Positions 1 to 53,845 of a stretch of 64,000 bases of DNA are shown here, piece after piece; within the stretch, counting starts at the first letter, position 1; every line of letters begins with the position of its first letter. The stretch is from Glycera tridactyla (lineage: Eukaryota). The notes under the pieces were generated by a model. It saw only the letters and a program-made list of their open reading frames with translations. It was not told the origin of the DNA and ran no database searches. Both the position numbers and the translations under genes were made by a program. The stretch lies in assembly GCA_965644265.1 (NCBI GenBank), contig OZ286469.1, positions 62,868,001-62,932,000 of the forward strand. Reading direction: 5' to 3'.

Positions 1-1020
1 TTGAAGGCTCGGAGGGCTGCTATTTTCGAGCAGGCTGCTGCTACCTCCGAGCTGATGAGAGTACGGGCTGCTGCTGCCAGTGTCACCACTTCGTCTGCTG
101 CCATTTCAAGTGCTACTACTTCTACTGCTGCTACTCCTACTGTCGGTGAGCCTAGTTCCTCTACTGCCGTTTCAAGTGCTACTACTCCTACTGCTGCTAC
201 TACTGCCTCTTCTACCCCTACCGCTACGCCTGGATCTGCTGCTACGATTTCTACTCAGACAGCCGCCGACTCGACAACCATCTCTACACAGACTTCCGAC
301 ATGGGAACTAGAGTCATCTCTACTCAGACTGCTGCGTTGCCTATTCTGTCCATGACTGCAGCTACCTCCGCTTCGTCTGCTTCGAGTGTCCCCAAGACCC
401 AGGTGCTCATCATGGGAAGCTCACACGTCGCCCGTATTCCCCTTTCAGCTTTAGACGGAGCGACCAATGTGACTTTGGCCGGGCGAGAGGGATTTACCTG
501 GTCGGAAGCCTTGCAAGTCCTGCAGGGAAAGAAGGAGCCGTCACGTGGAGATCTCTCTTCTACCTCCATCCGTGACCTAATTCTTAAGTGCAGCGTTTGT
601 GTGTTTATTTATGGATCTAATGATCTCGCTCGTAGATTTTTCGACGTAGAGAGTGGCAGAAATCGTTTTGCCACCTCAAGTGAGGTCATTCATGACATGA
701 ACTCCTTCTTATCGTATGTCGAATACCTGCGTGTGAAGTCTGGGCTGCCTATGCCGAGAATTCATGTTCTGAGCATTTTGACGCGTCCGGATTGGGATCA
801 GGAGCGGGTGAGGGCGGCCTGGCATGTGAATGAGGGAGTGGCTGCTCATCCCAGTGTAACGTCTTTGGTGGTGCCCGCCTGGTTCCATCCGGACGCACAT
901 ATTCGACCAACTACAGCTAAGGGTACTAAAGATAACAAGCATCTATATCAGCATCTGTATCCGGAGTTGTTGTATTCGATCAAGAGGGAGGTTAGAGCTT
1001 TCTCCCCTGGAGACTGGTGA
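1..1020 (+). CDS. SGNH/GDSL-type hydrolase with T/A/S-rich linker, copy A1 (5' end outside window)
   Basis: Open frame from the window start. Motifs GSSH (block I), GREG (II), GSND (III) and DNKH (V) are present. Confidence 0.8.
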   Translation: MKARRAAIFEQAAATSELMRVRAAAASVTTSSAAISSATTSTAATPTVGEPSSSTAVSSATTPTAATTASSTPTATPGSAATISTQTAADSTTISTQTSDMGTRVISTQTAALPILSMTAATSASSASSVPKTQVLIMGSSHVARIPLSALDGATNVTLAGREGFTWSEALQVLQGKKEPSRGDLSSTSIRDLILKCSVCVFIYGSNDLARRFFDVESGRNRFATSSEVIHDMNSFLSYVEYLRVKSGLPMPRIHVLSILTRPDWDQERVRAAWHVNEGVAAHPSVTSLVVPAWFHPDAHIRPTTAKGTKDNKHLYQHLYPELLYSIKREVRAFSPGDW

Positions 1021-1127
1021 ACATTCTATTTCTGCCTGTATGTCTGTTGTCTGTAAATATCCGTGCATAATATATAATCTAATGAGGCATTCGTGTTCTG
1101 GTTCTGTGTTTTTGTGTGTGATGGGTT

Positions 1128-1177
1128 TGTGTGTGTACGTGTGTGCGTGTGTGTGTGTGTGTGTGTGTATGTGTGTG
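1128..1177. repeat. Interrupted (TG)n microsatellite ~110 bp after the stop codon (one per A unit, length-variable)
   Basis: Directly visible. Length and interruptions differ between units. Confidence 0.95.
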
Positions 1178-1599
1178 CCAGTGGCTCTTGATGATAGGCT
1201 CGGTGTGCCCGAGTACTCTGTAGCTTGTATGTGGTAGTGTGGCACCTGGTGGTAGTTGCATGCATCATATTTGATCGTATGGGTTTTGTGCAATATGTGT
1301 GGCTTTGTTTACACACACACCTGTCATTTTATCTGGTTATTCTATACTGTGGAAAAATTAATTTTGGAATATTCACTATGCAGGTCTCTTGTCTTTATTG
1401 CCTGTCACTCAGCTGACCTCTACATGTGCCCCTCTCTATCTATTGAGATGCTCCAGGTGCAAAACTGGCTTTCTTGATTAAAAATTTGTTCCCTCAATCC
1501 ATGCCTTTCGGAATGTGTTTTCCTCAGCTGGAAAAGAGTCACCTCAATCTCAATAGGAGTAAAGAAGTGGTTACTCCCGTTTCCAATTAAGAGTTGAGA

Positions 1600-1666
1600 G
1601 GTTGGTTGTTGGTTGGTTGGTCCTGGTTTAACGTCTTGTCAGCACCATCTGGGCTATATTGTGACG
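1600..1666 (-). mobile_element. Possible older SINE 3'-tail remnant
   Basis: A (TTGG)n tract is followed by TTTAACGTC...GGCTATAT, the same layout as the tail of the 1877-2095 element. No target-site duplication recognised. Confidence 0.3.
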
Positions 1667-1876
1667 CCCATGCAATGGTCATGTTCAGGATCCTCCAAGA
1701 GCGACATTCTAATCCAAGAGAAAATTTGTACTAATGGAGACCATAGGATCCCTGCCGCCACCTACCCATGTCCATGTATGCACCCCAGCATTCAAACTAT
1801 TCTGCCCCTACCATAGAATTAACACGCCCCCTGCAAATGTGTGGCCACTCAAGTATGTGCTGCATGCATTAGATGG

Positions 1877-2095
1877 TTTGTTGTTTGTTTGTTTGTTTTA
1901 GTTTAACGTCACTTAAACCCGCTTGGGTTATATCGGACTGAAAAACTGAAAATGCTGAAGAAAAAGAGTCACTGCATGCCGGGGGCCGTCCCTACTCTTT
2001 GCAAAAGACAGCAGTGGATCTTTAACGTGCATGAAGGAAAAGGCTCCTAAATACACGGCCGGCCTTTGATATCCCAGTCGGCATGCACTGGGTTT
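1877..2095 (-). mobile_element. 5'-truncated SINE-like insertion with (CAAA)n tail; present in every A unit except the last
   Basis: Flanked by the 11-bp direct repeat GCATTAGATGG (1866-1876, 2096-2106). The empty site, with a single GCATTAGATGG, is seen near 51787. The minus strand ends ...GACGTTAAACTAAAACAAACAAAC. The internal GCACGTTAAAGATCC...AAGAGTAGGG...CCCCGG resembles my recollection of the Deu/Nin SINE domain (not verified). Confidence 0.75.
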
Positions 2096-2106
2096 GCATT
2101 AGATGG

Positions 2107-2154
2107 ATCATCACCAATCAGATCATCTTGATCATCACCAATCAGATCATCTTG
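2107..2154. repeat. Tandem duplication of the ATCATCACCAATCAGATCATCTTG-type segment next to the SINE
   Basis: Two adjacent copies in SINE-bearing units; a single copy in the last unit (about 51798). Confidence 0.85.
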
Positions 2155-2290
2155 GAACCAAACAGTTCTCGTTGAAAAGAAGGGATGACCAAACATGATG
2201 ATCTACATATCCGGAAGGTTCTGCACATCTCTGATAGGACCTAATACACTGAATCCTGACCCACTTAATTTTCCTACCATATTGTCAAGT

Positions 2291-2311
2291 TGTGTGTGTG
2301 TGTGTGTGTGT
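2291..2311. repeat. Second (TG)n microsatellite of the A unit
   Basis: Directly visible and length-variable. Missing in the A12/A13 junction unit because the deletion starts here. Confidence 0.95.
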
Positions 2312-2858
2312 ACATTTAGCTGCTCAATCGTGCCTATATCTTCAACTGATCTGAATGTACATTGATATGGCTGAAGGTACGACTGGTCAGAAACTCATAT
2401 AGGGCAAAGTTTCTGAGCATGATGGCGGATCCACTCGGGGATTGTGCCCCTGATCGAACATGCTGACTGGCTGAGACCTGCGAAACTATCATATCATCTA
2501 CATATCAGAATTCACCAATCACATTGCATGTAAGATGGTGCATTGGCGCAGAAGGCTTGTTGTAAAAAATATGAAGCAGGGCACTGTAATTGGGATATAT
2601 TTCAGTAAAACTAGGGATGCATCAATAGATTTCGGCTTAGAAATAAAGTCATCTACCCAGGGAGATAAGTTGATATATAAATAGTACATTTGAACCTGTT
2701 TACATAACCTTTCAATGTGACCGAGAGTGGGCTGTTTCTGCATGCAGGTGACGATTGTAGCAGAAGAGCTGTCATCACAATTGTAGTGTATGTAGTGTGA
2801 TATGTGTGATTTCTTTCTAAAGTGTAACCATTCCGTTTTCCGGTTATGTCAAGTATCG

Positions 2859-3074
2859 TCAGTTCACCTCACTCCGAGGTGTTATATAACAGTTTTAAAG
2901 TAGCGCTGCGAACACCACCTCGAGATTATTCGCCTTGCTCAGGGTGTTAGGATAGGCGAGTGCTCGCTCAGTTTACCTCACTCTGAGGTGTTATATAACC
3001 GTTCTTTATGTAGTTCTGCTAACACCTTGAGAATACTCGCCTAGCTCAAGGTGTTAGGATAGGCGAGTGCTCGC
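2859..3074. repeat. Two imperfect ~108-bp direct repeats rich in inverted repeats, upstream of each promoter (A2 shown)
   Basis: Copies at 2859-2967 and 2968-3074. Each has an ACCTC..GAGGT hairpin, a GTTATATAAC palindrome, an AACACC..GGTGTT inverted repeat (perfect 13 bp at 3019-3031/3045-3057) and GCGAGTGCTCGC. Confidence 0.9.
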
Positions 3075-3158
3075 TTAGTCTAGGCGTTAAATGTCAGCTT
3101 GCCGGCTGGCTAGTGGTTCTGGCCTGGCTGTGAGTGGCTGCTCACCGTGTTAACACCT

Positions 3159-3224
3159 GGGCGGCTTCAGCCAATGAGCGCTAACTAGTGGGCATAAAAC
3201 CGGCTGTTTTTCCCTAATTCAGTC
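3159..3224 (+). promoter_or_regulatory. Putative Pol II core promoter (A2 shown; present in every unit except A13 and out-of-window A1)
   Basis: GGGCGG at 3159-3164, AGCCAATGAG with CCAAT at 3171-3175, CATAAAA at 3193-3199 and Inr-like TCAGTC at 3219-3224. The Inr A is 28 nt after the start of the TATA-like box, and there is no ATG before 3308. Confidence 0.6.
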
Positions 3225-3307
3225 ATACCCTGTGAAGACTCCAGCTTCCAGTGTCTACTACTGCTACTACATTGCGTCTACCTCTGCTACATCTGCTATC
3301 GTCTACT

Positions 3308-4411
3308 ATGGAGTCAACAGCTGCCCTTCATCTTGCACCTGGTGGAATGCCCAGCAAGCTTGCCATGCGGGAGAAGCGACAAAGGCAGAATTTGAAGGCT
3401 CGGAGGGCTGCTATTTTCGAGCAGGCTGCTGCTACCTCCGAGCTGATGAGAGTACGGGCTGCTGCTGCCAGTGTCACCACTTCGTCTGCTGCCATTTCAA
3501 GTGCTACTACTTCTACTGCTGCTACTCCTACTGTCGGTGAGCCTAGTTCCTCTACTGCCGTTTCAAGTGCTACTACTCCTACTGCTGCTACTACTGCCTC
3601 TTCTACCCCTACCGCTACGCCTGGATCTGCTGCTACGATTTCTACTCAGACAGCCGCCGACTCGACAACCATCTCTACACAGACTTCCGACATGGGAACT
3701 AGAGTCATCTCTACTCAGACTGCTGCGTTGCCTATTCTGTCCACGACTGCAGCTACCTCCGCTTCGTCTGCTTCGAGTGTCCCCCAGACCCAGGTGCTCA
3801 TCATGGGAAGCTCACACGTCGCCCGTATTCCCCTTTCAGCTTTAGACGGAGCGACCAATGTGACTTTGGCCGGGCGAGAGGGATTTACCTGGTCGGAAGC
3901 CTTGCAAGTCCTGCAGGGAAAGAAGGAGCCGTCACGTGGAGATCTCTCTTCTACCTCCATCCGTGACCTAATTCTTAAGTGCAGCGTTTGTGTGTTTATT
4001 TATGGATCTAATGATCTCGCTCGTAGATTTTTCGACGTAGAGAGTGGCAGAAATCGTTTTGCCACCTCAAGTGAGGTCATTCATGACATGAACTCCTTCT
4101 TATCGTATGTCGAATACCTGCATGTGAAGTCTGGGCTGCCTATGCCTAGAATTCATGTTCTGAGCATTTTGACGCGTCCGGATTGGGATCAGGAGCGGGT
4201 GAGGGCGGCCTGGCATGTGAATGAGGGAGTGGCTGCTCATCCCAGTGTAACGTCTTTGGTGGTGCCCGCCTGGTTCCATCCGGACGCACATATTCGACCA
4301 ACTACAGCTAAGGGTACTAAAGATAACAAGCATCTATATCAGCATCTGTATCCGGAGTTGTTGTATTCGATCAAGAGGGAGGTTAGAGCTTTCTCCCCTG
4401 GAGACTGGTGA
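3308..4411 (+). CDS. SGNH hydrolase-domain protein, copy A2 (367 aa)
   Basis: First ATG after the Inr-like site, in strong context (actATGG); the ORF-track start at 3251 is a GTG. GSSH at 3806-3817, GSND at 4004-4015, DNKH at 4322-4333. Confidence 0.85.
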   Translation: MESTAALHLAPGGMPSKLAMREKRQRQNLKARRAAIFEQAAATSELMRVRAAAASVTTSSAAISSATTSTAATPTVGEPSSSTAVSSATTPTAATTASSTPTATPGSAATISTQTAADSTTISTQTSDMGTRVISTQTAALPILSTTAATSASSASSVPQTQVLIMGSSHVARIPLSALDGATNVTLAGREGFTWSEALQVLQGKKEPSRGDLSSTSIRDLILKCSVCVFIYGSNDLARRFFDVESGRNRFATSSEVIHDMNSFLSYVEYLHVKSGLPMPRIHVLSILTRPDWDQERVRAAWHVNEGVAAHPSVTSLVVPAWFHPDAHIRPTTAKGTKDNKHLYQHLYPELLYSIKREVRAFSPGDW

Positions 4412-6699
4412 ACATTCTATTTCTGCCTGTATGTCTGTTGTCTGTAAATATCCGTGCATAATATATAATCTAATGAGGCATTCGTGTTCTGGTTCTGTGT
4501 TTTATGTGTGTGATGGGTTTGTGTGTGTGTGTGTGTGTGCGTGTGTGTGTGTGTGTGTATGTGTGTGCCAGTGGCTCTTGATGATAGGCTCGGTGTGCCC
4601 GAGTACTCTGTAGCTTGTATGTGGTAGTGTGGCACCTGGTGGTAGTTGCATGCATCATATTTGATCGTATGGGTTTTGTGCAATATGTGTGGCTTTGTTT
4701 ACACACACACCTGTCATTTTATCTGGTTATTCTATACTGTGGAAAAATTAATTTTGGAATATTCACTATGCAGGTCTCTTGTCTTTATTGCCTGTCACTC
4801 AGCTGACCTCTACATGTGCCCCTCTCTATCTATTGAGATGCTCCAGGTGCAAAACTGGCTTTCTTGATTAAAATGTGTTCCCTCAATCCATGCCTTTCGG
4901 AATGTGTTTTCCTCAGCTGGAAAAGAGTCACCTCAATCTCAATAGGAGTAAAGAAGTGGTTACTCCCGTTTCCAATTAAGAGTTGAGAGGTTGGTTGTTG
5001 GTTGGTTGGTCCTGGTTTAACGTCTTGTCAGCACCATCTGGGCTATATTGTGACGCCCATGCAATGGTCATGTTCAGGATCCTCCAAGAGCGACATTCTA
5101 ATCCAAGAGAAAATTTGTACTAATGGAGACCATAGGATCCCTGCCGCCACCTACCCATGTCCATGTATGCACCCCAGCATTCAAACTATTCTGCCCCTAC
5201 CATAGAATTAACACGCCCCCTGCAAATGTGTGGCCACTCAAGTATGTGCTGCATGCATTAGATAGTTTGTTGTTTGTTTGTTTGTTTTAGTTTAACGTCA
5301 CTTAAACCCGCTTGGGTTATATCAGACTGAAAAACTGAAAATGCTGAAGAAAAAGAGTCACTGCATGCCGGGGGCCGTCCCTACTCTTTGCAAAAGACAG
5401 CAGTGGATCTTTAACGTGCATGAAGGAAAAGGCTCCTAAATACACGGCCGGCCTTTGATATCCCAGTTGGCATGCACTGGGTTTGCATTAGATGGATCAT
5501 CACCAATCAGATCATCTTGATCATCACCAATCAGATCATCTTGGAACCAAACAGTTCTTGTTGAAAAGAAAGGATGACCAAACATGATGATCTACATATC
5601 CGGAAGGTTCTGCACATCTCTGATAGGACCTAATACACTGAATCCTGACCCACTTAATTTTCCTACCATATTGTCAAGTTGTGTGTGTGTGTGTGTGTGT
5701 GTGTACATCTAGCTGCTCAATCGTGCCTATATCTTCAACTGATCTGAATGTACATTGATATGGCTGAAGGTACGACTGGTCAGAAACTCATATAGGGCAA
5801 AGTTTCTGAGCATGATGGCGATCCACTCGGGGATTGTGCCCCTGATCGAACATGCTGACTGGCTGAGACCTGCGAAACTATCATATCATCTACATATCAG
5901 AATTCACCAATCACATTGCATGTAAGATGGTGCATTGGCGCAGAAGGCTTGTTGTAAAAAATATGAAGCAGGGCACTGCAATTGGGATATATTTCAGTAA
6001 AACTAGGGATGCATCAATAGATTTCGGCTTAGAAATAAAGTCATCTACCCAGGGAGATAAGTTGATATATAAATAGTACATTTGAACCTGTTTACATAAC
6101 CTTTCAATGTGACCGAGAGTGGGCTGTTTCTGCATGCAGGTGACGATTGTAGCAGAAGAGCTGTCATCACAATTGTAGTGTATGTAGTGTGATATGTGTG
6201 ATTTCTTTCTAAAGTGTAACCATTCCGTTTTCCGGTTATGTCAAGTATCGTCAGTTCACCTCACTCCGAGGTGTTATATAACAGTTTTAAAGTAGCGCTG
6301 CGAACACCACCTCGAGATTATTCGCCATGCTCAGGGTGTTAGGATAGGCGAGTGCTCGCTCAGTTTACCTCACTCTGAGGTGTTATATAACCGTTCTTTA
6401 TGTAGTTCTGCTAACACCTTGAGAATACTCGCCTAGCTCAAGGTGTTAGGATAGGCGAGTGCTCGCTTAGTCTAGGCGTTAAATGTCAGCTTGCCGGCTG
6501 GCTAGTGGCTCTGGCCTGGCTGTGAGTGGCTGCTCACCGTGTTAACACCTGGGCGGCTTCAGCCAATGAGCGCTAACTAGTGGGCATAAAACCGGCTGTT
6601 TTTCCCTAATTCAGTCATACCCTGTGAAGACTCCAGCTTCCAGTGTCTACTACTGCTACTACATTGCGTCTACCTCTGCTACATCTGCTATCGTCTACT

Positions 6700-7803
6700 A
6701 TGGAGTCAACAGCTGCCCTTCATCTTGCACCTGGTGGAATGCCCAGCAAGCTTGCCATGCGGGAGAAGCGACAAAGGCAGAATTTGAAGGCTCGGAGGGC
6801 TGCTATTTTCGAGCAGGCTGCTGCTACCTCCGAGCTGATGAGAGTACGGGCTGCTGCTGCCAGTGTCACCACTTCGTCTGCTGCCATTTCAAGTGCTACT
6901 ACTTCTACTGCTGCTACTCCTACTGTCGGTGAGCCTAGTTCCTCTACTGCCGTTTCAAGTGCTACTACTCCTACTGCTGCTACTACTGCCTCTTCTACCC
7001 CTACCGCTACGCCTGGATCTGCTGCTACGATTTCTACTCAGACAGCCGCCGACTCGACAACCATCTCTACACAGACTTCCGACATGGGAACTAGAGTCAT
7101 CTCTACTCAGATTGCTGCGTTGCCTATTCTGTCCACGACTGCAGCTACCTCCGCTTCGTCTGCTTCGAGTGTCCCCCAGACCCAGGTGCTCATCATGGGA
7201 AGCTCACACGTCGCCCGTATTCCCCTTTCAGCTTTAGACGGAGCGACCAATGTGACTTTGGCCGGGCGAGAGGGATTTACCTGGTCGGAAGCCTTGCAAG
7301 TCCTGCAGGGAAAGAAGGAGCCGTCACGTGGAGATCTCTCTTCTACCTCCATCCGTGACCTAATTCTTAAGTGCAGCGTTTGTGTGTTTATTTATGGATC
7401 TAATGATCTCGCTCGTAGATTTTTCGACGTAGAGAGTGGCAGAAATCGTTTTGCCACCTCAAGTGAGGTCATTCATGACATGAACTCCTTCTTATCGTAT
7501 GTCGAATACCTGCATGTGAAGTCTGGGCTGCCTATGCCTAGAATTCATGTTCTGAGCATTTTGACGCGTCCGGATTGGGATCAGGAGCGGGTGAGGGCGG
7601 CCTGGCATGTGAATGAGGGAGTGGCTGCTCATCCCAGTATAACGTCTTTGGTGGTGCCCGCCTGGTTCCATCCGGACGCACATATTCGACCAACTACAGC
7701 TAAGGGTACTAAAGATAACAAGCATCTATATCAGCATCTGTATCCGGAGTTGTTGTATTCGATCAAGAGGGAGGTTAGAGCTTTCTCCCCTGGAGACTGG
7801 TGA
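6700..7803 (+). CDS. SGNH hydrolase-domain protein, copy A3
   Basis: Intact 367-aa frame, near-identical to A2. Confidence 0.85.
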   Translation: MESTAALHLAPGGMPSKLAMREKRQRQNLKARRAAIFEQAAATSELMRVRAAAASVTTSSAAISSATTSTAATPTVGEPSSSTAVSSATTPTAATTASSTPTATPGSAATISTQTAADSTTISTQTSDMGTRVISTQIAALPILSTTAATSASSASSVPQTQVLIMGSSHVARIPLSALDGATNVTLAGREGFTWSEALQVLQGKKEPSRGDLSSTSIRDLILKCSVCVFIYGSNDLARRFFDVESGRNRFATSSEVIHDMNSFLSYVEYLHVKSGLPMPRIHVLSILTRPDWDQERVRAAWHVNEGVAAHPSITSLVVPAWFHPDAHIRPTTAKGTKDNKHLYQHLYPELLYSIKREVRAFSPGDW

Positions 7804-10115
7804 ACATTCTATTTCTGCCTGTATGTCTGTTGTCTGTAAATATCCGTGCATAATATATAATCTAATGAGGCATTCGTGTTCTGGTTCTGTGTTTTTGTGT
7901 GTGATGGGTTTGTGTGTGTGTGTGTGTGTGCGTGTGTGTGTGGGTGTGTGTGTATGTGTGTGCCAGTGGCTCTTGATGATAGGCTCGGTGTGCCCGAGTA
8001 CTCTGTAGCTTGTATGTGGTAGTGTGGCACCTGGTGGTAGTTGCATGCATCATATTTGATCGTATGGGTTTTTTGCAATATGTGTGGCTTTGTTTACACA
8101 CACACCTGTCATTTTATCTGGTTATTCTATACTGTGGAAAAATTAATTTTGGAATATTCACTATGCAGGTCTCTTGTCTTTATTGCCTGTCACTCAGCTG
8201 ACCTCTACATGTGCCCCTCTCTATCTATTGAGATGCTCCAGGTGCAAAACTGGCTTTCTTGATTAAAATGTGTTCCCTCAATCCATGCCTTTCGGAATGT
8301 GTTTTCCTCAGCTGGAAAAGAGTCACCTCAATCTCAATAGGAGTAAAGAAGTGGTTACTCCCGTTTCCAATTAAGAGTTGAGAGGTTGGTTGTTGGTTGG
8401 TTGGTCCTGGTTTAACGTCTTGTCAGCACCATCTGGGCTATATTGTGACGCCCATGCAATGGTCATGTTCAGGATCCTCCAAGAGCGACATTCTAATCCA
8501 AGAGAAAATTTGTACTAATGGAGACCATAGGATCCCTGCCGCCACCTACCCATGTCCATGTATGCACCCCAGCATTCAAACTATTCTGCCCCTACCATAG
8601 AATTAACACGCCCCCTGCAAATGTGTGGCCACTCAAGTATGTGCTGCATGCATTAGATAGTTTGTTGTTTGTTTGTTTGTTTTAGTTTAACGTCACTTAA
8701 ACCCGCTTGGGTTATATCAGACTGAAAAACTGAAAATGCTGAAGAAAAAGAGTCACTGCATGCCGGGGGCCGTCCCTACTCTTTGCAAAAGACAGCAGTG
8801 GATCTTTAACGTGCATGAAGGAAAAGGCTCCTAAATACACGGCCGGCCTTTGATATCCCAGTTGGCATGCACTGGGTTTGCATTAGATGGATCATCACCA
8901 ATCAGATCATCTTGATCATCACCAATCAGATCATCTTGGAACCAAACAGTTCTTGTTGAAAAGAAAGGATGACCAAACATGATGATCTACATATCCGGAA
9001 GGTTCTGCACATCTCTGATAGGACCTAATACACTGAATCCTGACCCACTTAATTTTCCTACCATATTGTCAAGTTGTGTGTGTGTGTGTGTGTGTACATT
9101 TAGCTGCTCAATCGTGCCTATATCTTCAACTGATCTGAATGTACATTGATATGGCTGAAGGTACGACTGGTCAGAAACTCATATAGGGCAAAGTTTCTGA
9201 GCATGATGGCGGATCCACTCGGGGATTGTGCCCCTGATCGAACATGCTGACTGGCTGAGACCTGCGAAACTATCATATCATCTACATATCAGAATTCACC
9301 AATCACATTGCATGTAAGATGGTGCATTGGCGCAGAAGGCTTGTTGTAAAAAATATGAAGCAGGGCACTGCAGTTGGGATATATTTCAGTAAAACTAGGG
9401 ATGCATCAATAGATTTCGGCTTAGAAATAAAGTCATCTACCCAGGGAGATAAGTTGATATATAAATAGTACATTTGAACCTGTTTACATAACCTTTCAAT
9501 GTGACCGAGAGTGGGCTGTTTCTGCATGCAGGTGACGATTGTAGCAGAAGAGCTGTCATCACAATTGTAGTGTATGTAGTGTGATATGTGTGATTTCTTT
9601 CTAAAGTGTAACCATTCCGTTTTCCGGTTATGTCAAGTATCGTCAGTTCACCTCACTCCGAGGTGTTATATAACAGTTTTAAAGTAGCGCTGCGAACACC
9701 ACCTCGAGATTATTCGCCTTGCTCAGGGTGTTAGGATAGGCGAGTGCTCGCTCAGTTTACCTCACTCTGAGGTGTTATATAACCGTTCTTTATGTAGTTC
9801 TGCTAACACCTTGAGAATACTCGCCTAGCTCAAGGTGTTAGGATAGGCGAGTGCTCGCTTAGTCTAGGCGTTAAATGTCAGCTTGCCGGCTGGCTAGTGG
9901 CTCTGGCCTGGCTGTGAGTGGCTCTGGCCTGGCTGTGAGTGGCTGCTCACCGTGTTAACACCTGGGCGGCTTCAGCCAATGAGCGCTAACTAGTGGGCAT
10001 AAAACCGGCTGTTTTTCCCTAATTCATCAGTCATACCCTGTGAAGACTCCAGCTTCCAGTGTCTACTACTGCTACTACATTGCGTCTACCTCTGCTACAT
10101 CTGCTATCGTCTACT

Positions 10116-11219
10116 ATGGAGTCAACAGCTGCCCTTCATCTTGCACCTGGTGGAATGCCCAGCAAGCTTGCCATGCGGGAGAAGCGACAAAGGCAGAATT
10201 TGAAGGCTCGGAGGGCTGCTATTTTCGAGCAGGCTGCTGCTACCTCCGAGCTGATGAGAGTACGGGCTGCTGCTGCCAGTGTCACCACTTCGTCTGCTGC
10301 CATTTCAAGTGCTACTACTTCTACTGCTGCTACTCCTACTGTCGGTGAGCCTAGTTCCTCTACTGCCGTTTCAAGTGCTACTACTCCTACTGCTGCTACT
10401 ACTGCCTCTTCTACCCCTACCGCTACGCCTGGATCTGCTGCTACGATTTCTACTCAGACAGCCGCCGACTCGACAACCATCTCTACACAGACTTCCGACA
10501 TGGGAACTAGAGTCATCTCTACTCAGATTGCTGCGTTGCCTATTCTGTCCACGACTGCAGCTACCTCCGCTTCGTCTGCTTCGAGTGTCCCCCAGACCCA
10601 GGTGCTCATCATGGGAAGCTCACACGTCGCCCGTATTCCCCTTTCAGCTTTAGACGGAGCGACCAATGTGACTTTGGCCGGGCGAGAGGGATTTACCTGG
10701 TCGGAAGCCTTGCAAGTCCTGCAGGGAAAGAAGGAGCCGTCACGTGGAGATCTCTCTTCTACCTCCATCCGTGACCTAATTCTTAAGTGCAGCGTTTGTG
10801 TGTTTATTTATGGATCTAATGATCTCGCTCGTAGATTTTTCGACGTAGAGAGTGGCAGAAATCGTTTTGCCACCTCAAGTGAGGTCATTCATGACATGAA
10901 CTCCTTCTTATCGTATGTCGAATACCTGCATGTGAAGTCTGGGCTGCCTATGCCTAGAATTCATGTTCTGAGCATTTTGACGCGTCCGGATTGGGATCAG
11001 GAGCGGGTGAGGGCGGCCTGGCATGTGAATGAGGGAGTGGCTGCTCATCCCAGTGTAACGTCTTTGGTGGTGCCCGCCTGGTTCCATCCGGACGCACATA
11101 TTCGACCAACTACAGCTAAGGGTACTAAAGATAACAAGCATCTATATCAGCATCTGTATCCGGAGTTGTTGTATTCGATCAAGAGGGAGGTTAGAGCTTT
11201 CTCCCCTGGAGACTGGTGA
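10116..11219 (+). CDS. SGNH hydrolase-domain protein, copy A4
   Basis: Intact 367-aa frame. Confidence 0.85.
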   Translation: MESTAALHLAPGGMPSKLAMREKRQRQNLKARRAAIFEQAAATSELMRVRAAAASVTTSSAAISSATTSTAATPTVGEPSSSTAVSSATTPTAATTASSTPTATPGSAATISTQTAADSTTISTQTSDMGTRVISTQIAALPILSTTAATSASSASSVPQTQVLIMGSSHVARIPLSALDGATNVTLAGREGFTWSEALQVLQGKKEPSRGDLSSTSIRDLILKCSVCVFIYGSNDLARRFFDVESGRNRFATSSEVIHDMNSFLSYVEYLHVKSGLPMPRIHVLSILTRPDWDQERVRAAWHVNEGVAAHPSVTSLVVPAWFHPDAHIRPTTAKGTKDNKHLYQHLYPELLYSIKREVRAFSPGDW

Positions 11220-13510
11220 ACATTCTATTTCTGCCTGTATGTCTGTTGTCTGTAAATATCCGTGCATAATATATAATCTAATGAGGCATTCGTGTTCTGG
11301 TTCTGTGTTTTTGTGTGTGATGGGTTTGTGTGTGTGTGTGTGTGCGTGTGTGTGTGGGTGTGTGTGTATGTGTGTGCCAGTGGCTCTTGATGATAGGCTC
11401 GGTGTGCCCGAGTACTCTGTAGCTTGTATGTGGTAGTGTGGCACCTGGTGGTAGTTGCATGCATCATATTTGATCGTATGGGTTTTGTGCAATATGTGTG
11501 GCTTTGTTTACACACACACCTGTCATTTTATCTGGTTATTCTATACTGTGGAAAAATTAATTTTGGAATATTCACTATGCAGGTCTCTTGTCTTTATTGC
11601 CTGTCACTCAGCTGACCTCTACATGTGCCCCTCTCTATCTATTGAGATGCTCCAGGTGCAAAACTGGCTTTCTTGATTAAAATGTGTTCCCTCAATCCAT
11701 GCCTTTCGGAATGTGTTTTCCTCAGCTGGAAAAGAGTCACCTCAATCTCAATAGGAGTAAAGAAGTGGTTACTCCCGTTTCCAATTAAGAGTTGAGAGGT
11801 TGGTTGTTGGTTGGTTGGTCCTGGTTTAACGTCTTGTCAGCACCATCTGGGCTATATTGTGACGCCCATGCAATGGTCATGTTCAGGATCCTCCAAGAGC
11901 GACATTCTAATCCAAGAGAAAATTTGTACTAATGGAGACCATAGGATCCCTGCCGCCACCTACCCATGTCCATGTATGCACCCCAGCATTCAAACTATTC
12001 TGCCCCTACCATAGAATTAACACGCCCCCTGCAAATGTGTGGCCACTCAAGTATGTGCTGCATGCATTAGATGGTTTGTTGTTTGTTCGTTTGTTTTAGT
12101 TTAACGTCACTTAAACCCGCTTGGGTTATATCGGACTGAAAAACTGAAAATGCTGAAGAAAAAGAGTCACTGCATGCCGGGGGCCGTCCCTACTCTTTGC
12201 GAAAGACAGCAGTGGATCTTTAACGTGCGTGAAGGAAAAGGCTCCTAAATACACGGCCGGCCTTTGATATCCCAGTCGGCATGCACTGGGTTTGCATTAG
12301 ATGGATCATCACCAATCAGATCATCTTGATCATCACCAATCAGATCATCTTGGAACCAAACAGTTCTTGTTGAAAAGAAAGGATGACCAAACATGATGAT
12401 CTACATATCCGGAAGGTTCTGCACATCTCTGATAGGACCTAATACACTGAATCCTGACCCACTTAATTTTCCTACCATATTGTCAAGTTGTGTGTGTGTG
12501 TGTGTGTGTGTACATTTAGCTGCTCAATCGTGCCTATATCTTCAACTGATCTGAATGTACATTGATATGGCTGAAGGTACGACTGGTCAGAAACTCATAT
12601 AGGGCAAAGTTTCTGAGCATGATGGCGGATCCACTCGGGGATTGTGCCCCTGATCGAACATGCTGACTGGCTGAGACCTGCGAAACTATCATATCATCTA
12701 CATATCAGAATTCACCAATCACATTGCATGTAAGATGGTGCATTGGCGCAGAAGGCTTGTTGTAAAAAATATGAAGCAGGGCACTGCAATTGGGATATAT
12801 TTCAGTAAAACTAGGGATGCATCAATAGATTTCGGCTTAGAAATAAAGTCATCTACCCAGGGAGATAAGTTGATATATAAATAGTACATTTGAACCTGTT
12901 TACATAACCTTTCAATGTGACCGAGAGTGGGCTGTTTCTGCATGCAGGTGACGATTGTAGCAGAAGAGCTGTCATCACAATTGTAGTGTATGTAGTGTGA
13001 TATGTGTGATTTCTTTCTAAAGTGTAACCATTCCGTTTTCCGGTTATGTCAAGTATCGTCAGTTCACCTCACTCCGAGGTGTTATATAACAGTTTTAAAG
13101 TAGCGCTGCGAACACCACCTCGAGATTATTCGCCTTGCTCAGGGTGTTAGGATAGGCGAGTGCTCGCTCAGTTTACCTCACTCTGAGGTGTTATATAACC
13201 GTTCTTTATGTAGTTCTGCTAACACCTTGAGAATACTTGCCTAGCTCAAGGTGTTAGGATAGGCGAGTGCTCGCTTAGTCTAGGCGTTAAATGTCAGCTT
13301 GCCGGCTGGCTAGTGGCTCTGGCCTGGCTGTGAGTGGCTGCTCACCGTGTTAACACCTGGGCGGCTTCAGCCAATGAGCGCTAACTAGTGGGCATAAAAC
13401 CGGCTGTTTTTCCCTAATTCATCAGTCATACCCTGTGAAGACTCCAGCTTCCAGTGTCTACTACTGCTACTACATTGCGTCTACCTCTGCTACATCTGCT
13501 ATCGTCTACT

Positions 13511-14614
13511 ATGGAGTCAACAGCTGCCCTTCATCTTGCACCTGGTGGAATGCCCAGCAAGCTTGCCATGCGGGAGAAGCGACAAAGGCAGAATTTGAAG
13601 GCTCGGAGGGCTGCTATTTTCGAGCAGGCTGCTGCTACCTCCGAGCTGATGAGAGTACGGGCTGCTGCTGCCAGTGTCACCACTTCGTCTGCTGCCATTT
13701 CAAGTGCTACTACTTCTACTGCTGCTACTCCTACTGTCGGTGAGCCTAGTTCCTCTACTGCCGTTTCAAGTGCTACTACTCCTACTGCTGCTACTACTGC
13801 CTCTTCTACCCCTACCGCTACGCCTGGATCTGCTGCTACGATTTCTACTCAGACAGCCGCCGACTCGACAACCATCTCTACACAGACTTCCGACATGGGA
13901 ACTAGAGTCATCTCTACTCAGATTGCTGCGTTGCCTATTCTGTCCACGACTGCAGCTACCTCCGCTTCGTCTGCTTCGAGTGTCCCCCAGACCCAGGTGC
14001 TCATCATGGGAAGCTCACACGTCGCCCGTATTCCCCTTTCAGCTTTAGACGGAGCGACCAATGTGACTTTGGCCGGGCGAGAGGGATTTACCTGGTCGGA
14101 AGCCTTGCAAGTCCTGCAGGGAAAGAAGGAGCCGTCACGTGGAGATCTCTCTTCTACCTCCATCCGTGACCTAATTCTTAAGTGCAGCGTTTGTGTGTTT
14201 ATTTATGGATCTAATGATCTCGCTCGTAGATTTTTCGACGTAGAGAGTGGCAGAAATCGTTTTGCCACCTCAAGTGAGGTCATTCATGACATGAACTCCT
14301 TCTTATCGTATGTCGAATACCTGCATGTGAAGTCTGGGCTGCCTATGCCTAGAATTCATGTTCTGAGCATTTTGACGCGTCCGGATTGGGATCAGGAGCG
14401 GGTGAGGGCGGCCTGGCATGTGAATGAGGGAGTGGCTGCTCATCCCAGTGTAACGTCTTTGGTGGTGCCCGCCTGGTTCCATCCGGACGCACATATTCGA
14501 CCAACTACAGCTAAGGGTACTAAAGATAACAAGCATCTATATCAGCATCTGTATCCGGAGTTGTTGTATTCGATCAAGAGGGAGGTTAGAGCTTTCTCCC
14601 CTGGAGACTGGTGA
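13511..14614 (+). CDS. SGNH hydrolase-domain protein, copy A5
   Basis: Intact 367-aa frame. Confidence 0.85.
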   Translation: MESTAALHLAPGGMPSKLAMREKRQRQNLKARRAAIFEQAAATSELMRVRAAAASVTTSSAAISSATTSTAATPTVGEPSSSTAVSSATTPTAATTASSTPTATPGSAATISTQTAADSTTISTQTSDMGTRVISTQIAALPILSTTAATSASSASSVPQTQVLIMGSSHVARIPLSALDGATNVTLAGREGFTWSEALQVLQGKKEPSRGDLSSTSIRDLILKCSVCVFIYGSNDLARRFFDVESGRNRFATSSEVIHDMNSFLSYVEYLHVKSGLPMPRIHVLSILTRPDWDQERVRAAWHVNEGVAAHPSVTSLVVPAWFHPDAHIRPTTAKGTKDNKHLYQHLYPELLYSIKREVRAFSPGDW

Positions 14615-16925
14615 ACATTCTATTTCTGCCTGTATGTCTGTTGTCTGTAAATATCCGTGCATAATATATAATCTAATGAGGCATTCGTGTTCTGGTTCTG
14701 TGTTTTTGTGTGTGATGGGTTTGTGTGTGTGTGTGTGTGCGTGTGTGTGTGGGTGTGTGTGTATGTGTGTGCCAGTGGCTCTTGATGATAGGCTCGGTGT
14801 GCCTGAGTACTCTGTAGCTTGTATGTGGTAGTGTGGCACCTGGTGGTAGTTGCATGCATCATATTTGATCGTATGGGTTTTTTGCAATATGTGTGGCTTT
14901 GTTTACACACACACCTGTCATTTTATCTGGTTATTCTATACTGTGGAAAAATTAATTTTGGAATATTCACTATGCAGGTCTCTTGTCTTTATTGCCTGTC
15001 ACTCAGCTGACCTCTACATGTGCCCCTCTCTATCTATTGAGATGCTCCAGGTGCAAAACTGGCTTTCTTGATTAAAATGTGTTCCCTCAATCCATGCCTT
15101 TCTGAATGTGTTTTCCTCAGCTGGAAAAGAGTCACCTCAATCTCAATAGGAGTAAAGAAGTGGTTACTCCCGTTTCCAATTAAGAGTTGAGAGGTTGGTT
15201 GTTGGTTGGTTGGTCCTGGTTTAACGTCTTGTCAGCACCATCTGGGCTATATTGTGACGCCCATGCAATGGTCATGTTCAGGATCCTCCAAGAGCGACAT
15301 TCTAATCCAAGAGAAAATTTGTACTAATGGAGACCATAGGATCCCTGCCGCCACCTACCCATGTCCATGTATGCACCCCAGCATTCAAACTATTCTGCCC
15401 CTACCATAGAATTAACACGCCCCCTGCAAATGTGTGGCCACTCAAGTATGTGCTGCATGCATTAGATAGTTTGTTGTTTGTTTGTTTGTTTTAGTTTAAC
15501 GTCACTTAAACCCGCTTGGGTTATATCGGACTGAAAAACTGAAAATGCTGAAGAAAAAGAGTCACTGCATGCCGGGGGCCGTCCCTACTCTTTGCAAAAG
15601 ACAGCAGTGGATCTTTAACGTGCATGAAGGAAAAGGCTCCTAAATACACGGCCGGCCTTTGATATCCCAGTCGGCATGCACTGGGTTTGCATTAGATGGA
15701 TCATCACCAATCAGATCATCTTGATCATCACCAATCAGATCATCTTGGAACCAAACAGTTCTTGTTGAAAAGAAAGGATGACCAAACATGATGATCTACA
15801 TATCCGGAAGGTTCTGCACATCTCTGATAGGACCTAATACACTGAATCCTGACCCACTTAATTTTCCTACCATATTGTCAAGTTGTGTGTGTGTGTGTGT
15901 GTGTGTGTACATTTAGCTGCTCAATCGTGCCTATATCTTCAACTGATCTGAATGTACATTGATATGGCTGAAGGTACGACTGGTCAGAAACTCATATAGG
16001 GCAAAGTTTCTGAGCATGATGGCGGATCCACTCGGGGATTGTGCCCCTGATCGAACATGCTGACTGGCTGAGACCTGCGAAACTATCATATCATCTACAT
16101 ATCAGAATTCACCAATCACATTGCATGTAAGATGGTGCATTGGCGCAGAAGGCTTGTTGTAAAAAATATGAAGCAGGGCACTGCAGTTGGGATATATTTC
16201 AGTAAAACTAGGGATGCATCAATAGATTTCGGCTTAGAAATAAAGTCATCTACCCAGGGAGATAAGTTGATATATAAATAGTACATTTGAACCTGTTTAC
16301 ATAACCTTTCAATGTGACCGAGAGTGGGCTGTTTCTGCATGCAGGTGACGATTGTAGCAGAAGAGCTGTCATCACAATTGTAGTGTATGTAGTGTGATAT
16401 GTGTGATTTCTTTCTAAAGTGTAACCATTCCGTTTTCCGGTTATGTCAAGTATCGTCAGTTCACCTCACTCCGAGGTGTTATATAACAGTTTTAAAGTAG
16501 CGCTGCGAACACCACCTCGAGATTATTTGCCTTGCTCAGGGTGTTAGGATAGGCGAGTGCTCGCTCAGTTTACCTCACTCTGAGGTGTTATATAACCGTT
16601 CTTTATGTAGTTCTGCTAACACCTTGAGAATACTCGCCTAGCTCAAGGTGTTAGGATAGGCGAGTGCTCGCTTAGTCTAGGCGTTAAATGTCAGCTTGCC
16701 GGCTGGCTAGTGGCTCTGGCCCGGCTGTGAGTGGCTCTGGCCTGGCTGTGAGTGGCTGCTCACCGTGTTAACACCTGGGCGGCTTCAGCCAATGAGCGCT
16801 AACTAGTGGGCATAAAACCGGCTGTTTTTCCCTAATTCAGTCATACCCTGTGAAGACTCCAGCTTCCAGTGTCTACTACTGCTACTACATTGCGTCTACC
16901 TCTGCTACATCTGCTATCGTCTACT

Positions 16926-18029
16926 ATGGAGTCAACAGCTGCCCTTCATCTTGCACCTGGTGGAATGCCCAGCAAGCTTGCCATGCGGGAGAAGCGACAA
17001 AGGCAGAATTTGAAGGCTCGGAGGGCTGCTATTTTCGAGCAGGCTGCTGCTACCTCCGAGCTGATGAGAGTACGGGCTGCTGCTGCCAGTGTCACCACTT
17101 CGTCTGCTGCCATTTCAAGTGCTACTACTTCTACTGCTGCTACTCCTACTGTCGGTGAGCCTAGTTCCTCTACTGCCGTTTCAAGTGCTACTACTCCTAC
17201 TGCTGCTACTACTGCCTCTTCTACCCCTACCGCTACGCCTGGATCTGCTGCTACGATTTCTACTCAGACAGCCGCCGACTCGACAACCATCTCTACACAG
17301 ACTTCCGACATGGGAACTAGAGTCATCTCTACTCAGACTGCTGCGTTGCCTATTCTGTCCACGACTGCAGCTACCTCCGCTTCGTCTGCTTCGAGTGTCC
17401 CCCAGACCCAGGTGCTCATCATGGGAAGCTCACACGTCGCCCGTATTCCCCTTTCAGCTTTAGACGGAGCGACCAATGTGACTTTGGCCGGGCGAGAGGG
17501 ATTTACCTGGTCGGAAGCCTTGCAAGTCCTGCAGGGAAAGAAGGAGCCGTCACGTGGAGATCTCTCTTCTACCTCCATCCGTGACCTAATTCTTAAGTGC
17601 AGCGTTTGTGTGTTTATTTATGGATCTAATGATCTCGCTCGTAGATTTTTCGACGTAGAGAGTGGCAGAAATCGTTTTGCCACCTCAAGTGAGGTCATTC
17701 ATGACATGAACTCCTTCTTATCGTATGTCGAATACCTGCGTGTGAAGTCTGGGCTGCCTATGCCGAGAATTCATGTTCTGAGCATTTTGACGCGTCCGGA
17801 TTGGGATCAGGAGCGGGTGAGGGCGGCCTGGCATGTGAATGAGGGAGTGGCTGCTCATCCCAGTGTAACGTCTTTGGTGGTGCCCGCCTGGTTCCATCCG
17901 GACGCACATATTCGACCAACTACAGCTAAGGGTACTAAAGATAACAAGCATCTATATCAGCATCTGTATCCGGAGTTGTTGTATTCGATCAAGAGGGAGG
18001 TTAGAGCTTTCTCCCCTGGAGACTGGTGA
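16926..18029 (+). CDS. SGNH hydrolase-domain protein, copy A6
   Basis: Intact 367-aa frame. Confidence 0.85.
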   Translation: MESTAALHLAPGGMPSKLAMREKRQRQNLKARRAAIFEQAAATSELMRVRAAAASVTTSSAAISSATTSTAATPTVGEPSSSTAVSSATTPTAATTASSTPTATPGSAATISTQTAADSTTISTQTSDMGTRVISTQTAALPILSTTAATSASSASSVPQTQVLIMGSSHVARIPLSALDGATNVTLAGREGFTWSEALQVLQGKKEPSRGDLSSTSIRDLILKCSVCVFIYGSNDLARRFFDVESGRNRFATSSEVIHDMNSFLSYVEYLRVKSGLPMPRIHVLSILTRPDWDQERVRAAWHVNEGVAAHPSVTSLVVPAWFHPDAHIRPTTAKGTKDNKHLYQHLYPELLYSIKREVRAFSPGDW

Positions 18030-20315
18030 ACATTCTATTTCTGCCTGTATGTCTGTTGTCTGTAAATATCCGTGCATAATATATAATCTAATGAGGCATT
18101 CGTGTTCTGGTTCTGTGTTTTTGTGTGTGATGGGTTTGTGTGTGTGTGTGTGTGCGTGTGTGTGTGTGTGTGTATGTGTGTGCCAGTGGCTCTTGATGAT
18201 AGGCTCGGTGTGCCCGAGTACTCTGTAGCTTGTATGTGGTAGTGTGGCACCTGGTGGTAGTTGCATGCATCATATTTGATCGTATGGGTTTTGTGCAATA
18301 TGTGTGGCTTTGTTTACACACACACCTGTCATTTTATCTGGTTATTCTATACTGTGGAAAAATTAATTTTGGAATATTCACTATGCAGGTCTCTTGTCTT
18401 TATTGCCTGTCACTCAGCTGACCTCTACATGTGCCCCTCTCTATCTATTGAGATGCTCCAGGTGCAAAACTGGCTTTCTTGATTAAAATGTGTTCCCTCA
18501 ATCCATGCCTTTCGGAATGTGTTTTCCTCAGCTGGAAAAGAGTCACCCCAATCTCAATAGGAGTAAAGAAGTGGTTACTCCCGTTTCCAATTAAGAGTTG
18601 AGAGGTTGGTTGTTGGTTGGTTGGTCCTGGTTTAACGTCTTGTCAGCACCATCTGGGCTATATTGTGACGCCCATGCAATGGTCATGTTCAGGATCCTCC
18701 AAGAGCGACATTCTAATCCAAGAGAAAATTTGTACTAATGGAGACCATAGGATCCCTGCCGCCACCTACCCATGTCCATGTATGCACCCCAGCATTCAAA
18801 CTATTCTGCCCCTACCATAGAATTAACACGCCCCCTGCAAATGTGTGGCCACTCAAGTATGTGCTGCATGCATTAGATGGTTTGTTGTTTGTTTGTTTGT
18901 TTTAGTTTAACGTCACTTAAACCCGCTTGGGTTATATCGGACTGAAAAACTGAAAATGCTGAAGAAAAAGAGTCACTGCATGCCGGGGCCGTCCCTAATC
19001 TTTGCGAAAGACAGCAGTGGATCTTTAACGTGCGTGAAGGAAAAGGCTCCTAAATACACGGCCGGCCTTTGATATCCCAGTCGGCATGCACTGGGTTTGC
19101 ATTAGATGGATCATCACCAATCAGATCATCTTGATCATCACCAATCAGATCATCTTGGAACCAAACAGTTCTTGTTGAAAAGAAAGGATGACCAAACATG
19201 ATGATCTACATATCCGGAAGGTTCTGCACATCTCTGATAGGACCTAATACACTGAATCCTGACCCACTTAATTTTCCTACCATATTGTCAAGTTGTGTGT
19301 GTGTGTGTGTGTGTGTACATTTAGCTGCCCAATCGTGCCTATATCTTCAACTGATCTGAATGTACATTGATATGGCTGAAGGTACGACTGGTCAGAAACT
19401 CATATAGGGCAAAGTTTCTGAGCATGATGGCGGATCCACTCGGGGATTGTGCCCCTGATCGAACATGCTGACTGGCTGAGACCTGCGAAACTATCATATC
19501 ATCTACATATCAGAATTCACCAATCACATTGCATGTAAGATGGTGCATTGGCGCAGAAGGCTTGTTGTAAAAAATATGAAGCAGGGCACTGCAGTTGGGA
19601 TATATTTCAGTAAAACTAGGGATGCATCAATAGATTTCGGCTTAGAAATAAAGTCATCTACCCAGGGAGATAAGTTGATATATAAATAGTACATTTGAAC
19701 CTGTTTACATAACCTTTCAATGTGACCGAGAGTGGGCTGTTTCTGCATGCAGGTGACGATTGTAGCAGAAGAGCTGTCATCACAATTGTAGTGTATGTAG
19801 TGTGATATGTGTGATTTCTTTCTAAAGTGTAACCATTCCGTTTTCCGGTTATGTCAAGTATCGTCAGTTCACCTCACTCCGAGGTGTTATATAACAGTTT
19901 TAAAGTAGCGCTGCGAACACCACCTCGAGATTATTCGCCTTGCTCAGGGTGTTAGGATAGGCGAGTGCTCGCTCAGTTTACCTCACTCTGAGGTGTTATA
20001 TAACCGTTCTTTATGTAGTTCTGCTAACACCTTGAGAATACTCGCCTAGCTCAAGGTGTTAGGATAGGCGAGTGCTCGCTTAGTCTAGGCGTTAAATGTC
20101 AGCTTGCCGGCTGGCTAGTGGCTCTGGCCTGGCTGTGAGTGGCTGCTCACCGTGTTAACACCTGGGCGGCTTCAGCCAATGAGCGCTAACTAGTGGGCAT
20201 AAAACCGGCTGTTTTTCCCTAATTCATCAGTCATACCCTGTGAAGACTCCAGCTTCCAGTGTCTACTACTGCTACTACATTGCGTCTACCTCTGCTACAT
20301 CTGCTATCGTCTACT

Positions 20316-21419: not shown

Positions 21420-21526
21420 ACATTCTATTTCTGCCTGTATGTCTGTTGTCTGTAAATATCCGTGCATAATATATAATCTAATGAGGCATTCGTGTTCTGG
21501 TTCTGTGTTTTTGTGTGTGATGGGTT

Positions 21527-21557
<31 letters not shown>

Positions 21558-35022: not shown

Positions 35023-35126
35023 ACATTCTATTTCTGCCTGTATGTCTGTTGTCTGTAAATATCCGTGCATAATATATAATCTAATGAGGCATTCGTGTTC
35101 TGGTTCTGTGTTTTTGTGTGTGATGG

Positions 35127-35164
<38 letters not shown>

Positions 35165-44135: not shown

Positions 44136-44239
44136 ACATTCTATTTCTGCCTGTATGTCTGTTGTCTGTAAATATCCGTGCATAATATATAATCTAATGA
44201 GGCATTCGTGTTCTGGTTCTGTGTTTTTGTGTGTGATGG

Positions 44240-44277
<38 letters not shown>

Positions 44278-52974: not shown

Positions 52975-53845
52975 GAATGTTGCGGTCACACACAGGACTG
53001 CAACAGTCCACATCTTCATTACAGAGTGACGGAGTGGGAAGAGTTTCCTGGTCCATATGGGGATGTGATTGTTCCATGGGTCCAGAGTTTAGAGTTTCTG
53101 ATGAAAAAATGTAACAATCCATGCATATGTCAGAAAGGGCCTTTTATGATGAATATTGGCAGTTGAGCTTCTTCTCTGGTGAATAATACTGTGGTTGAAT
53201 GCGTCTCCAGTCAGCTTTACAGGGTTATTCGTTGTGAGCCAATCACATCCCTGCATACAGTACAGACTATCAGGTCCTGGACAATCATGCGCTGGTGTGT
53301 GCCCCCACACCACAGGATGGGCACGCCTGCCATGCAGGATTTCAATTGACATCAGTTACAAGTATGCAAGATGATTACATTGCATTGTCAAAAGACAATT
53401 TGGCCAACATGAAAGATGTTTTTAGTATGTTACTAACAATTCTCCGCACACTGCAATGATATGGGCATACAAGCTAATTTTTTTTGCATCTCAATCATTG
53501 CTGTTGGTGACTTGATGCAGTTATCACCAGTCAATATTCTAATATATGTGATTTTGAGTAAATTTCACTGAAACTCCAAAAAGAAGATCATGTACAAAAC
53601 CTCATTCAATGGTCTGCAACATTTGATGTTCTGAATCAATATGGACAAATTATACATCAATCGATGCAAAATCTTGTCCTGCATTGATGTTCCAAATTTG
53701 GTGAAGATCCGTCAGAGTTGTGGAAGAATTTGACGAGGAATGGATATGAAGCTAGACGAAATCACTTCCTGGCTTCATTTTCGACTGCTGAAACAATCAT
53801 GACCATCAGTTGCTTTCGCTCACGTCCGTGAGTGTGCCTTATATC

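Follow-up and report, generated by a model that had tools for sequence, protein, structure and literature searches.

An SGNH-hydrolase gene carried antisense by a LINE of Glycera tridactyla, with candidate LC8-binding TQT motifs in its linker

The stretch of Glycera tridactyla DNA analysed here (64,000 nucleotides, referred to as the window) contains an open reading frame, A, which specifies a putative SGNH-type esterase bearing three TQT motifs in a linker of predicted disorder. It is near certain that this gene is transposon cargo; it occupies the antisense strand of a LINE 3' UTR. We propose, with a probability that we would put at about 55%, that LC8 dimerises this accessory esterase through its TQT anchors, the binding itself being predicted. 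Host LC8 dimers would bind the motifs in the linker of the transposon-encoded protein and zip two chains together, whereupon the esterase domains would dimerise; LC8 would thus take the role that a coiled coil has in the esterase ORF1p of ZfL2-1. The basic helix of the protein may provide nuclear or RNA targeting, and the gene would be transcribed from an antisense promoter of its own. The features on which the argument rests are collected in Table 1.

Table 1. Features of the window and of the LINE insertion sites (positions are those of the window unless a contig or locus is named).
Feature	Position	Strand	Remarks
Tandem array 1	1..52924	+	~3.39-kb unit; 16 SGNH copies in window; 97-99% identical
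LINE 3' UTR segment	2786..4649	-	LINE-derived part of array unit
Promoter-like words	3169..3224	+	CCAAT (3169), TATA-like CATAAAA (3192), Inr-like TCAGTC (3218); putative function
ORF A	3308..4411	+	367 aa: basic helix, disordered linker, SGNH domain; antisense to parent LINE
Predicted N-terminal helix	3356..3487	+	residues 17-60; K/R-rich first half (6/12)
LC8-type site 1	3632..3655	+	ATISTQTA; anchor lost in A2/A3 subfamilies, absent in B
LC8-type site 2	3665..3688	+	TTISTQTS; TQT in 6/8 LINE-borne subfamily representatives
LC8-type site 3	3701..3724	+	RVISTQTA; Q invariant in 8/8 representatives; TQI in 8/14 array copies
SGNH-hydrolase domain	3794..4408	+	S168 (3809), G189 (3872), N235 (4010), D339 (4322), H342 (4331)
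Tandem array 2	53246..64000	+	2974-bp unit (flank, B fragment, C fragment, ORF1 fragment); runs beyond window
Flanking DNA	56850..56897	+	TATA-like box and target-site sequence also preceding LINE copy C29e
B	56898..57601	+	N-terminally truncated B-subfamily gene; 97.9% to dispersed copy L012; one IATQT remaining
C	57649..58059	+	internal piece of C-subfamily gene; 92.7% to L010; 4 anchors
LINE ORF1 fragment	58064..59252	+	frameshifted; Ulp1/C48-like protease region; 51% identical to intact ORF1
LINE insertion 5' flanks	G000:C18:66655264, C10:68231085, C42:5316209, L146, L147, L150, L157 and others		

The fold of the C-terminal domain was recognised through structure searches, as a Pfam scan of the A, B and C domains and a sequence search of the PDB gave no match. 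The closest structural matches to the AlphaFold2 model of the domain (pLDDT 91) are SGNH hydrolases [Foldseek E 2e-7; Z 16.8, rmsd 2.5, 163 aligned residues], the OSK domain of Oskar matches as well [Z 14.0], and GDSL clusters are found at 0.94-0.95. Blocks I, II, III and V are present as GSSH, G189, GSND and DNKH, and S168, G189, N235, D339 and H342 are invariant in all 13 full-length rows. Based upon the model this is an SGNH fold with intact catalytic residues, and A is a putative esterase. The full-length model predicts a helix at residues 17-60 and disorder at 57-158 (pLDDT<50), with the linker not packing on the domain. The basic helix is a candidate nuclear localisation signal or RNA-binding motif; in all in-genome lineages counted the N-terminus includes a stretch rich in K/R (6-7 of 12). 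A search of longer proteins revealed no fused forms, which is weak evidence.

Direct translation gives ISTQT at 3638-3652, 3671-3685 and 3707-3721, where a first-pass annotation of the sequence had placed them, with 11 and 12 aa between successive motifs, and all three lie inside the T/A/S-rich linker that is predicted to be disordered. The same annotation was right in listing ISTKT, ISTQT, TSTQT, ISTQT and VSIQT for C (57672-57827) and IATQT for B (56900); the N-terminus of B, which it described as unrelated, proves to be flanking DNA. It had also proposed that the motifs be compared with shuffled linker sequence. We shuffled each N-terminal region 20,000 times and counted [TVI]Q[TV], the anchor consensus given in the available text of PMC3078936: A holds three anchors against 0.51 expected (p=0.011) and C four against 0.48 (p=0.00015), while B, with one against 0.17, shows no significant excess (p=0.16).

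Where the first-pass annotation failed is in treating A, B and C as three tandemly amplified paralogs of a host hydrolase. Domain matches number 122 on 17 contigs of this 2.04-Gb genome, and in 13 of the first 20 dispersed loci inspected a LINE ORF2 converges on the gene from the opposite strand; all four ORF2s scanned against Pfam contain endonuclease, RT and RNase H. The complete element measures 12.7 kb and consists of ORF1 (~1300-1390 aa, containing CCHC knuckles, which were read directly, and a Ulp1-like region), ORF2 (~1290 aa), the antisense gene and then some 2.2 kb more of 3' UTR. Target-site duplications (TSDs) of 10-11 bp were found at 8/14 element ends. From these dispersed, TSD-bounded elements, and from the fragmentary state of B and C, it follows that the "three paralogs" are three subfamilies of one mobile, retrotransposon-borne accessory gene. 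Host paralogs and an endogenous virus were both considered and were ruled out by the TSD-bounded EN-RT-RNaseH elements. An APE endonuclease, RT and RNase H in ORF2, CCHC knuckles in ORF1 and TSDs are as in I-group non-LTR retrotransposons, and to judge from sequence the architecture of the carrier fits that group, whose molluscan clades are Nimb and Ingi (PMC10294476, in the part available). The Ulp1/C48-like region lies N-terminally, ahead of the CCHC knuckles (for example L023:3-4064, minus strand); it has His and Cys motifs, scores below the Pfam cut-off, and is unusual in an RNase-H LINE.

The antisense frame behaves as a gene. Its domain has pN/pS of 0.07-0.16 between A, A2, A3 and C and of 0.09 within B, and these low values between subfamilies indicate purifying selection. 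It is nevertheless an optional accessory of the LINE, since it is absent from 6/13 of the LINE 3' regions examined; in alignments of two such gene-less regions the gap appears as a deletion from B-type and C-type elements. Two elements in which a diverged ORF2 (75-77%) is joined to a 97% identical 3' region suggest module exchange. Upstream of the gene CCAAT is present in 5/6 and the TATA-like word in 6/6 LINE-borne representatives, C having single-base variants, and lineages E, F and G, like the two loci read outside this genome, also have TATA-like words ahead of the gene, all of which is consistent with the antisense promoter suggested above. The LINE 3' UTR, like the window at 2856-3082, has imperfect repeats of ~108 bp upstream of this putative promoter; further repeats occur in the 3' UTR and one cassette deletion maps at their copies. 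Rfam returned no match at gathering level in three loci, the 3' UTR repeats included.

The window holds two tandem arrays. Among the 16 SGNH copies of array 1 there are 13 whole open frames, one cut by the window edge and two with stops, and its segment 2786-4649 is 94.7-95.3% identical to the dispersed copies C42a and C47. Fourteen A copies were scored, the edge-cut copy and a truncated copy near 39.7 kb being left out; their variants comprise 14 synonymous and 26 nonsynonymous changes on 282 and 819 sites (pN/pS ~0.64), a stop codon occurs in one of the 14 and PQT at site 1 in one. This looks like near-neutral amplification. In array 2, B begins at the junction with the flank (56898), hence its first residues, MKEKAHLP, are target-site sequence; its ATG sits directly behind the TATA-like box, so that the B start lies probably outside any transcript. 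C lacks both gene ends and the C-terminal half of the domain. The Ulp1/C48-like match of the neighbouring ORF1 fragment is again below the Pfam cut-off (E=0.0013). The arrays arose secondarily, by amplification of fragments, and are probably not in themselves what selection acts on. Broken members of the H and D2 lineages are tandemly amplified at C7:111.83-111.86 Mb and C18:24.08-24.12 Mb (G000), which means that the cassette was amplified in tandem more than once. At window 53450-53560, and in the repeats of the B/C unit, a broken stretch reads IIAVGDLMQLSPV, which we take to resemble a PIF1-type helicase motif. A Helitron origin, considered on account of such helicase-like words in the B/C flank and the Ulp1-like ORF, was dropped, the Ulp1-like piece being LINE ORF1.

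The insertion sites of the LINE show a pattern of their own. Insertion takes place in a fixed register: counted from the first base of a TATA box the element enters ~21 bp downstream, close to the presumptive transcription start. A TATA-like word is present at 10/12 of the first insertion sites against a background of 6%, the pattern having been chosen after looking; in an independent set of 22 ends, 14 without a TSD at the junction, 4/8 of those with a TSD pass the same pattern (p=3e-4) and 3/8 a strict one (p=6e-6). Our literature search found no report of such TATA-linked targeting by a LINE. Several copies (L003, L006, L021, L022, L026 and L027; G000:C29:62.60-62.66 Mb and C30) lie just upstream of tandem histone H1 genes, full-length and truncated copies occupying the same spot. 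Just past the window arrays, at G000:C29:62966919-63130251, about a dozen copies stand head to tail at two target sites, a plus-strand run facing a minus-strand run, apparently by re-insertion at the same TSD. The word CGCTCACGTCCG is found ~10 bp ahead of the TATA-like box both at the LINE target site (window 56850-56880) and in H1 promoters, and also upstream of the SGNH genes L125 and L127 in another assembly.

Related genes are not confined to the LINE. Lineage E lies inside a 14.4-kb element, both ends of which are common to three copies; it shows AT duplications and short inverted termini, and codes for a THAP/DDE transposase as well as a YqaJ ORF. These are the features that the accessible text of PMC4122938 gives for ISL2EU (THAP-DDE transposase, YqaJ ORF, AT target duplication, short TIRs), and by its sequence the carrier is assigned to ISL2EU DNA transposons. 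Lineage H is probably carried by a MULE: at three loci an OTU-MULE transposase is collinear with it, the ends of this element not being defined. No carrier was seen at the F and G loci. In lineage G, which sits in a 10.4-kb tandem duplication, the catalytic serine is lost (GNAH); the dead member at L018:4657-5829 and L056:5038-6210 has kept its frame and the best LC8-type site, SVGVQVD, and is a candidate domesticated copy. SGNH-like ORFs were also noted upstream of an RT/GIY-YIG (Penelope-like) ORF (L044:6343-9998) and in an insertion within LINE ORF2 (G000:C29:62992540-62993205, minus strand). Outside this genome a profile search recovered five proteins among 1.84 billion and four loci in one other assembly, and at one of the latter, L127, the SGNH gene again lies opposite an RNase-H-bearing ORF on the other strand. 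That the gene is optional and has relatives on DNA transposons makes it likely that RNA and DNA transposons alike would profit from action on its substrate.

Anchors also occur outside A, even in lineages whose linkers are unrelated. With one representative per lineage (n=7) the shuffle test gave 11 anchors against 1.7 expected, and at least one anchor is present in 6/7 in-genome lineages against 1.5 expected (p=4e-5), p-values which overstate independence inasmuch as the lineages share ancestry. Fifteen SGNH domains contain no anchors, and T/Q-rich ORF1 controls show no excess (2 against ~3 expected). The Q columns of sites 1, 2 and 3 are in register in 4/8, 6/8 and 8/8 LINE-borne representatives respectively, and the outgroup subfamilies D and D2 show the same three-site register although the neighbouring residues have diverged, D2 being represented in the linker alignment by its last 64 residues only (its segment covered several copies). 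No linker column is invariant in the eight representatives except two, T(-1) at site 2 and Q(0) at site 3. All four codons are in use for the anchor threonines, third positions varying, and pN is 0-0.15 for anchors, a figure resting on 0-3 changes, against 0.12-0.46 for the linker in the diverged pairs, which low-complexity misalignment inflates. Lineages E, G and H have GVQVS, GVQVD and GIQVT instead. The G[IV]QV class includes the GKAP and nNOS sites, and a single substitution separates the SVGVQVD of lineage G from SVGVQVE, a validated site in GKAP (PMC5746249 S1 Table, as far as available). No anchor is present in F (L019), E2 (L017), L126/L127/P0002 or L128. Of three outside lineages with N-termini two are without an anchor and one has TQS; in L125 a heptad helix is followed by DVSTQSE. 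By a crude count, outside relatives with no anchor or one non-canonical anchor fill 5/6 heptad a/d positions, against 0-4/6 for in-genome lineages and 4/6 for A.

The genome encodes a canonical LC8 at G000:C18:48600805-48601074 (L061:1489-1758), and modelling of LC8 with the linker, as the first-pass annotation had advised, was carried out with two LC8 chains and two copies of A 100-150. The complex scored 0.68 as against 0.36 for the best control; the mark applied is reached by 51/78 solved and 2/108 mismatched pairs (39/65 and 2/126 in eukaryotes), a calibration outside which disordered peptides fall. The runs share at least 72% of contacts, with partner pLDDT of at least 42. In the model the site bound is site 3, whose residues 130-138 are predicted to contact LC8 59-70 in the canonical groove; only one LC8 dimer was included and the result bears on docking of a single site. 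Since LC8-TQT complexes have already been solved, the score shows likeness and not binding, and it may reflect memory of those structures. AAA mutants are among the AlphaFold false positives described in the available part of PMC12057147.

It might be argued that the esterase is a real accessory protein and that its TQT words are inherited, locally duplicated elements of a mucin-like spacer without useful LC8 binding; the G[IV]QV near the domain in other lineages could then be an extra beta-strand packed on the fold. We regard this as somewhat unlikely, but several observations agree with it. Judged by text rules on the flanks, applied in place of LC8Pred and including a polar -4, a large -3 and P/D/E at +2, sites 1 and 2 comply with 4/5 and site 3 with 3/5; the P/D/E preferred at +2 is missing from all three, and at -4 of site 3 stands a hydrophobic residue, which is disfavoured for LC8 binding (PMC6607443). 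As reported in the accessible text of that paper, many S/T-rich TQT peptides fail to bind: 31/47 of the peptides tested, mostly by ITC, were non-binders (Table 1), including KMT2C VSVSTQTAS, which closely resembles the sites of A. Site 1 has been lost in A2/A3 and B and site 2 in B, the anchorless members named above have to be accounted for, and in the outside sister lineage of H (L126/L127) the anchor rule is broken by EQV at about the place where H reads IQV, so that this word may be structural. On the other hand the three-site register is common to D and D2 and kept amid synonymous codon turnover, T/Q-rich ORF1 controls are without excess, site 3 docks into the canonical groove in the complex model, and in the model of full-length A the linker is predicted to lie off the domain. 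Weak LC8 sites in clusters are known to bind via bivalency, and a TQI peptide of ICE1 binds LC8 (both PMC6607443, the latter Table 1), hence TQI at site 3 need not abolish binding. Dimerisation by LC8 is accordingly the reading we prefer. The first-pass proposal that these proteins are LC8 clients draws partial support from anchors above chance, a register that is kept across LINE subfamilies and the predicted docking of site 3.

Alternatively the protein might be a counter-silencing factor, which binds or titrates LC8, or reaches LC8-dependent silencing complexes, where the hydrolase would strip an acyl mark; this seems to us very unlikely. Such an activity would benefit any transposon class, and it agrees with the carriage of related genes by the LINE, the ISL2EU element and probably the MULE, as well as with the K/R-rich stretch in all in-genome lineages counted. 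Against it, LC8 is a ubiquitous hub which is hard to titrate. In Drosophila LC8 dimerises Panoramix via TQT motifs and is required for transposon silencing, but homologues of Panoramix are not known beyond insects (PMC7861614, in the text available). A wider version, in which one accessory enzyme family spread over LINE, ISL2EU and MULE hijacks LC8 through two motif classes against nuclear transposon silencing and is carried by a TATA-targeting LINE, is distinctly unlikely in our estimation; if true, it would constitute an animal cross-class anti-silencing factor. We consider it highly improbable that LC8 links the protein, and via the basic helix the RNP of the element, to dynein for transport. 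LC8 is a dynein subunit and Egalitarian is a dynein cargo adaptor. Egalitarian also appears on the validated LC8 list (PMC5746249 S1 Table); against this, LC8 is mostly a dynein-independent dimerisation hub (PMC7861614), DNA transposons have no RNP to ferry, and the gene is missing from six of the 13 LINE 3' regions. The analysis found no support for the extension to dynein-associated transport made in the first-pass annotation.

SGNH genes in transposons are already known. The esterase ORF1p of zebrafish ZfL2-1 (CR1/L2/RTEX LINEs) is an SGNH hydrolase dimerised by a coiled coil (PMC3905857), and, as far as the accessible text describes it, shares with A a LINE-encoded SGNH domain preceded by a linker of low conservation, together with an arginine-rich motif and an element for dimerisation, putative in the case of A. 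There, however, the esterase is the sense-strand ORF1, upstream of ORF2; here the gene is a third, antisense and optional one, downstream of ORF2 and beside a separate CCHC-knuckle ORF1, with LC8-type linker anchors. The GDSL ORF3 of the rotifer Vesta1 LTR and Athena elements is likewise an accessory SGNH gene found across unrelated element types with catalytic residues intact, but in retroelements only, whereas a DNA transposon is also involved here, and the available text of PMC5408684 makes no mention of LC8 motifs. Compared by description, texim of fish Helitrons is a multicopy, transposon-mobilised SGNH gene dispensable for the element (PMC4021074, partial text); it has introns, unlike the intronless gene on LINE, ISL2EU and probably MULE. 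With regard to the anchors, Nup159, Chica/FAM83D, GKAP and Panoramix each have a disordered region with 2-4 Q-centred anchors, spaced by 11-13 residues (PMC5746249, PMC7861614), and multivalent LC8 clients include both TQT and G[IV]QV classes, as here (PMC5746249 S1 Table), so far as the accessible portions of these sources extend. Those clients are host proteins with measured binding, whereas binding here is predicted, and the present sites are without the K/R at -3 and D/E/P at +2 favoured in LC8 clients. According to the text available of PMC7861614, a leucine zipper can substitute for LC8 in Panoramix dimerisation. The literature searched, outside whose scope lay Repbase and most subscription journals, yielded no LC8-binding transposon esterase, no LINE antisense 3'-UTR SGNH gene and no sharing of SGNH genes with cut-and-paste transposons; Repbase annotations or supplements could already describe the element.

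The family described here bears on the role of transposon-encoded SGNH esterases: an esterase which is separate from ORF1 and common to RNA and DNA transposons argues against a purely RNP-packaging role. The family offers a cheap handle, since the LC8 anchors and the catalytic serine can be changed by point mutation and elements that naturally lack the gene can serve as controls. Clamping by LC8, if true, would represent a novel use of a host hub by a protein of transposon origin.
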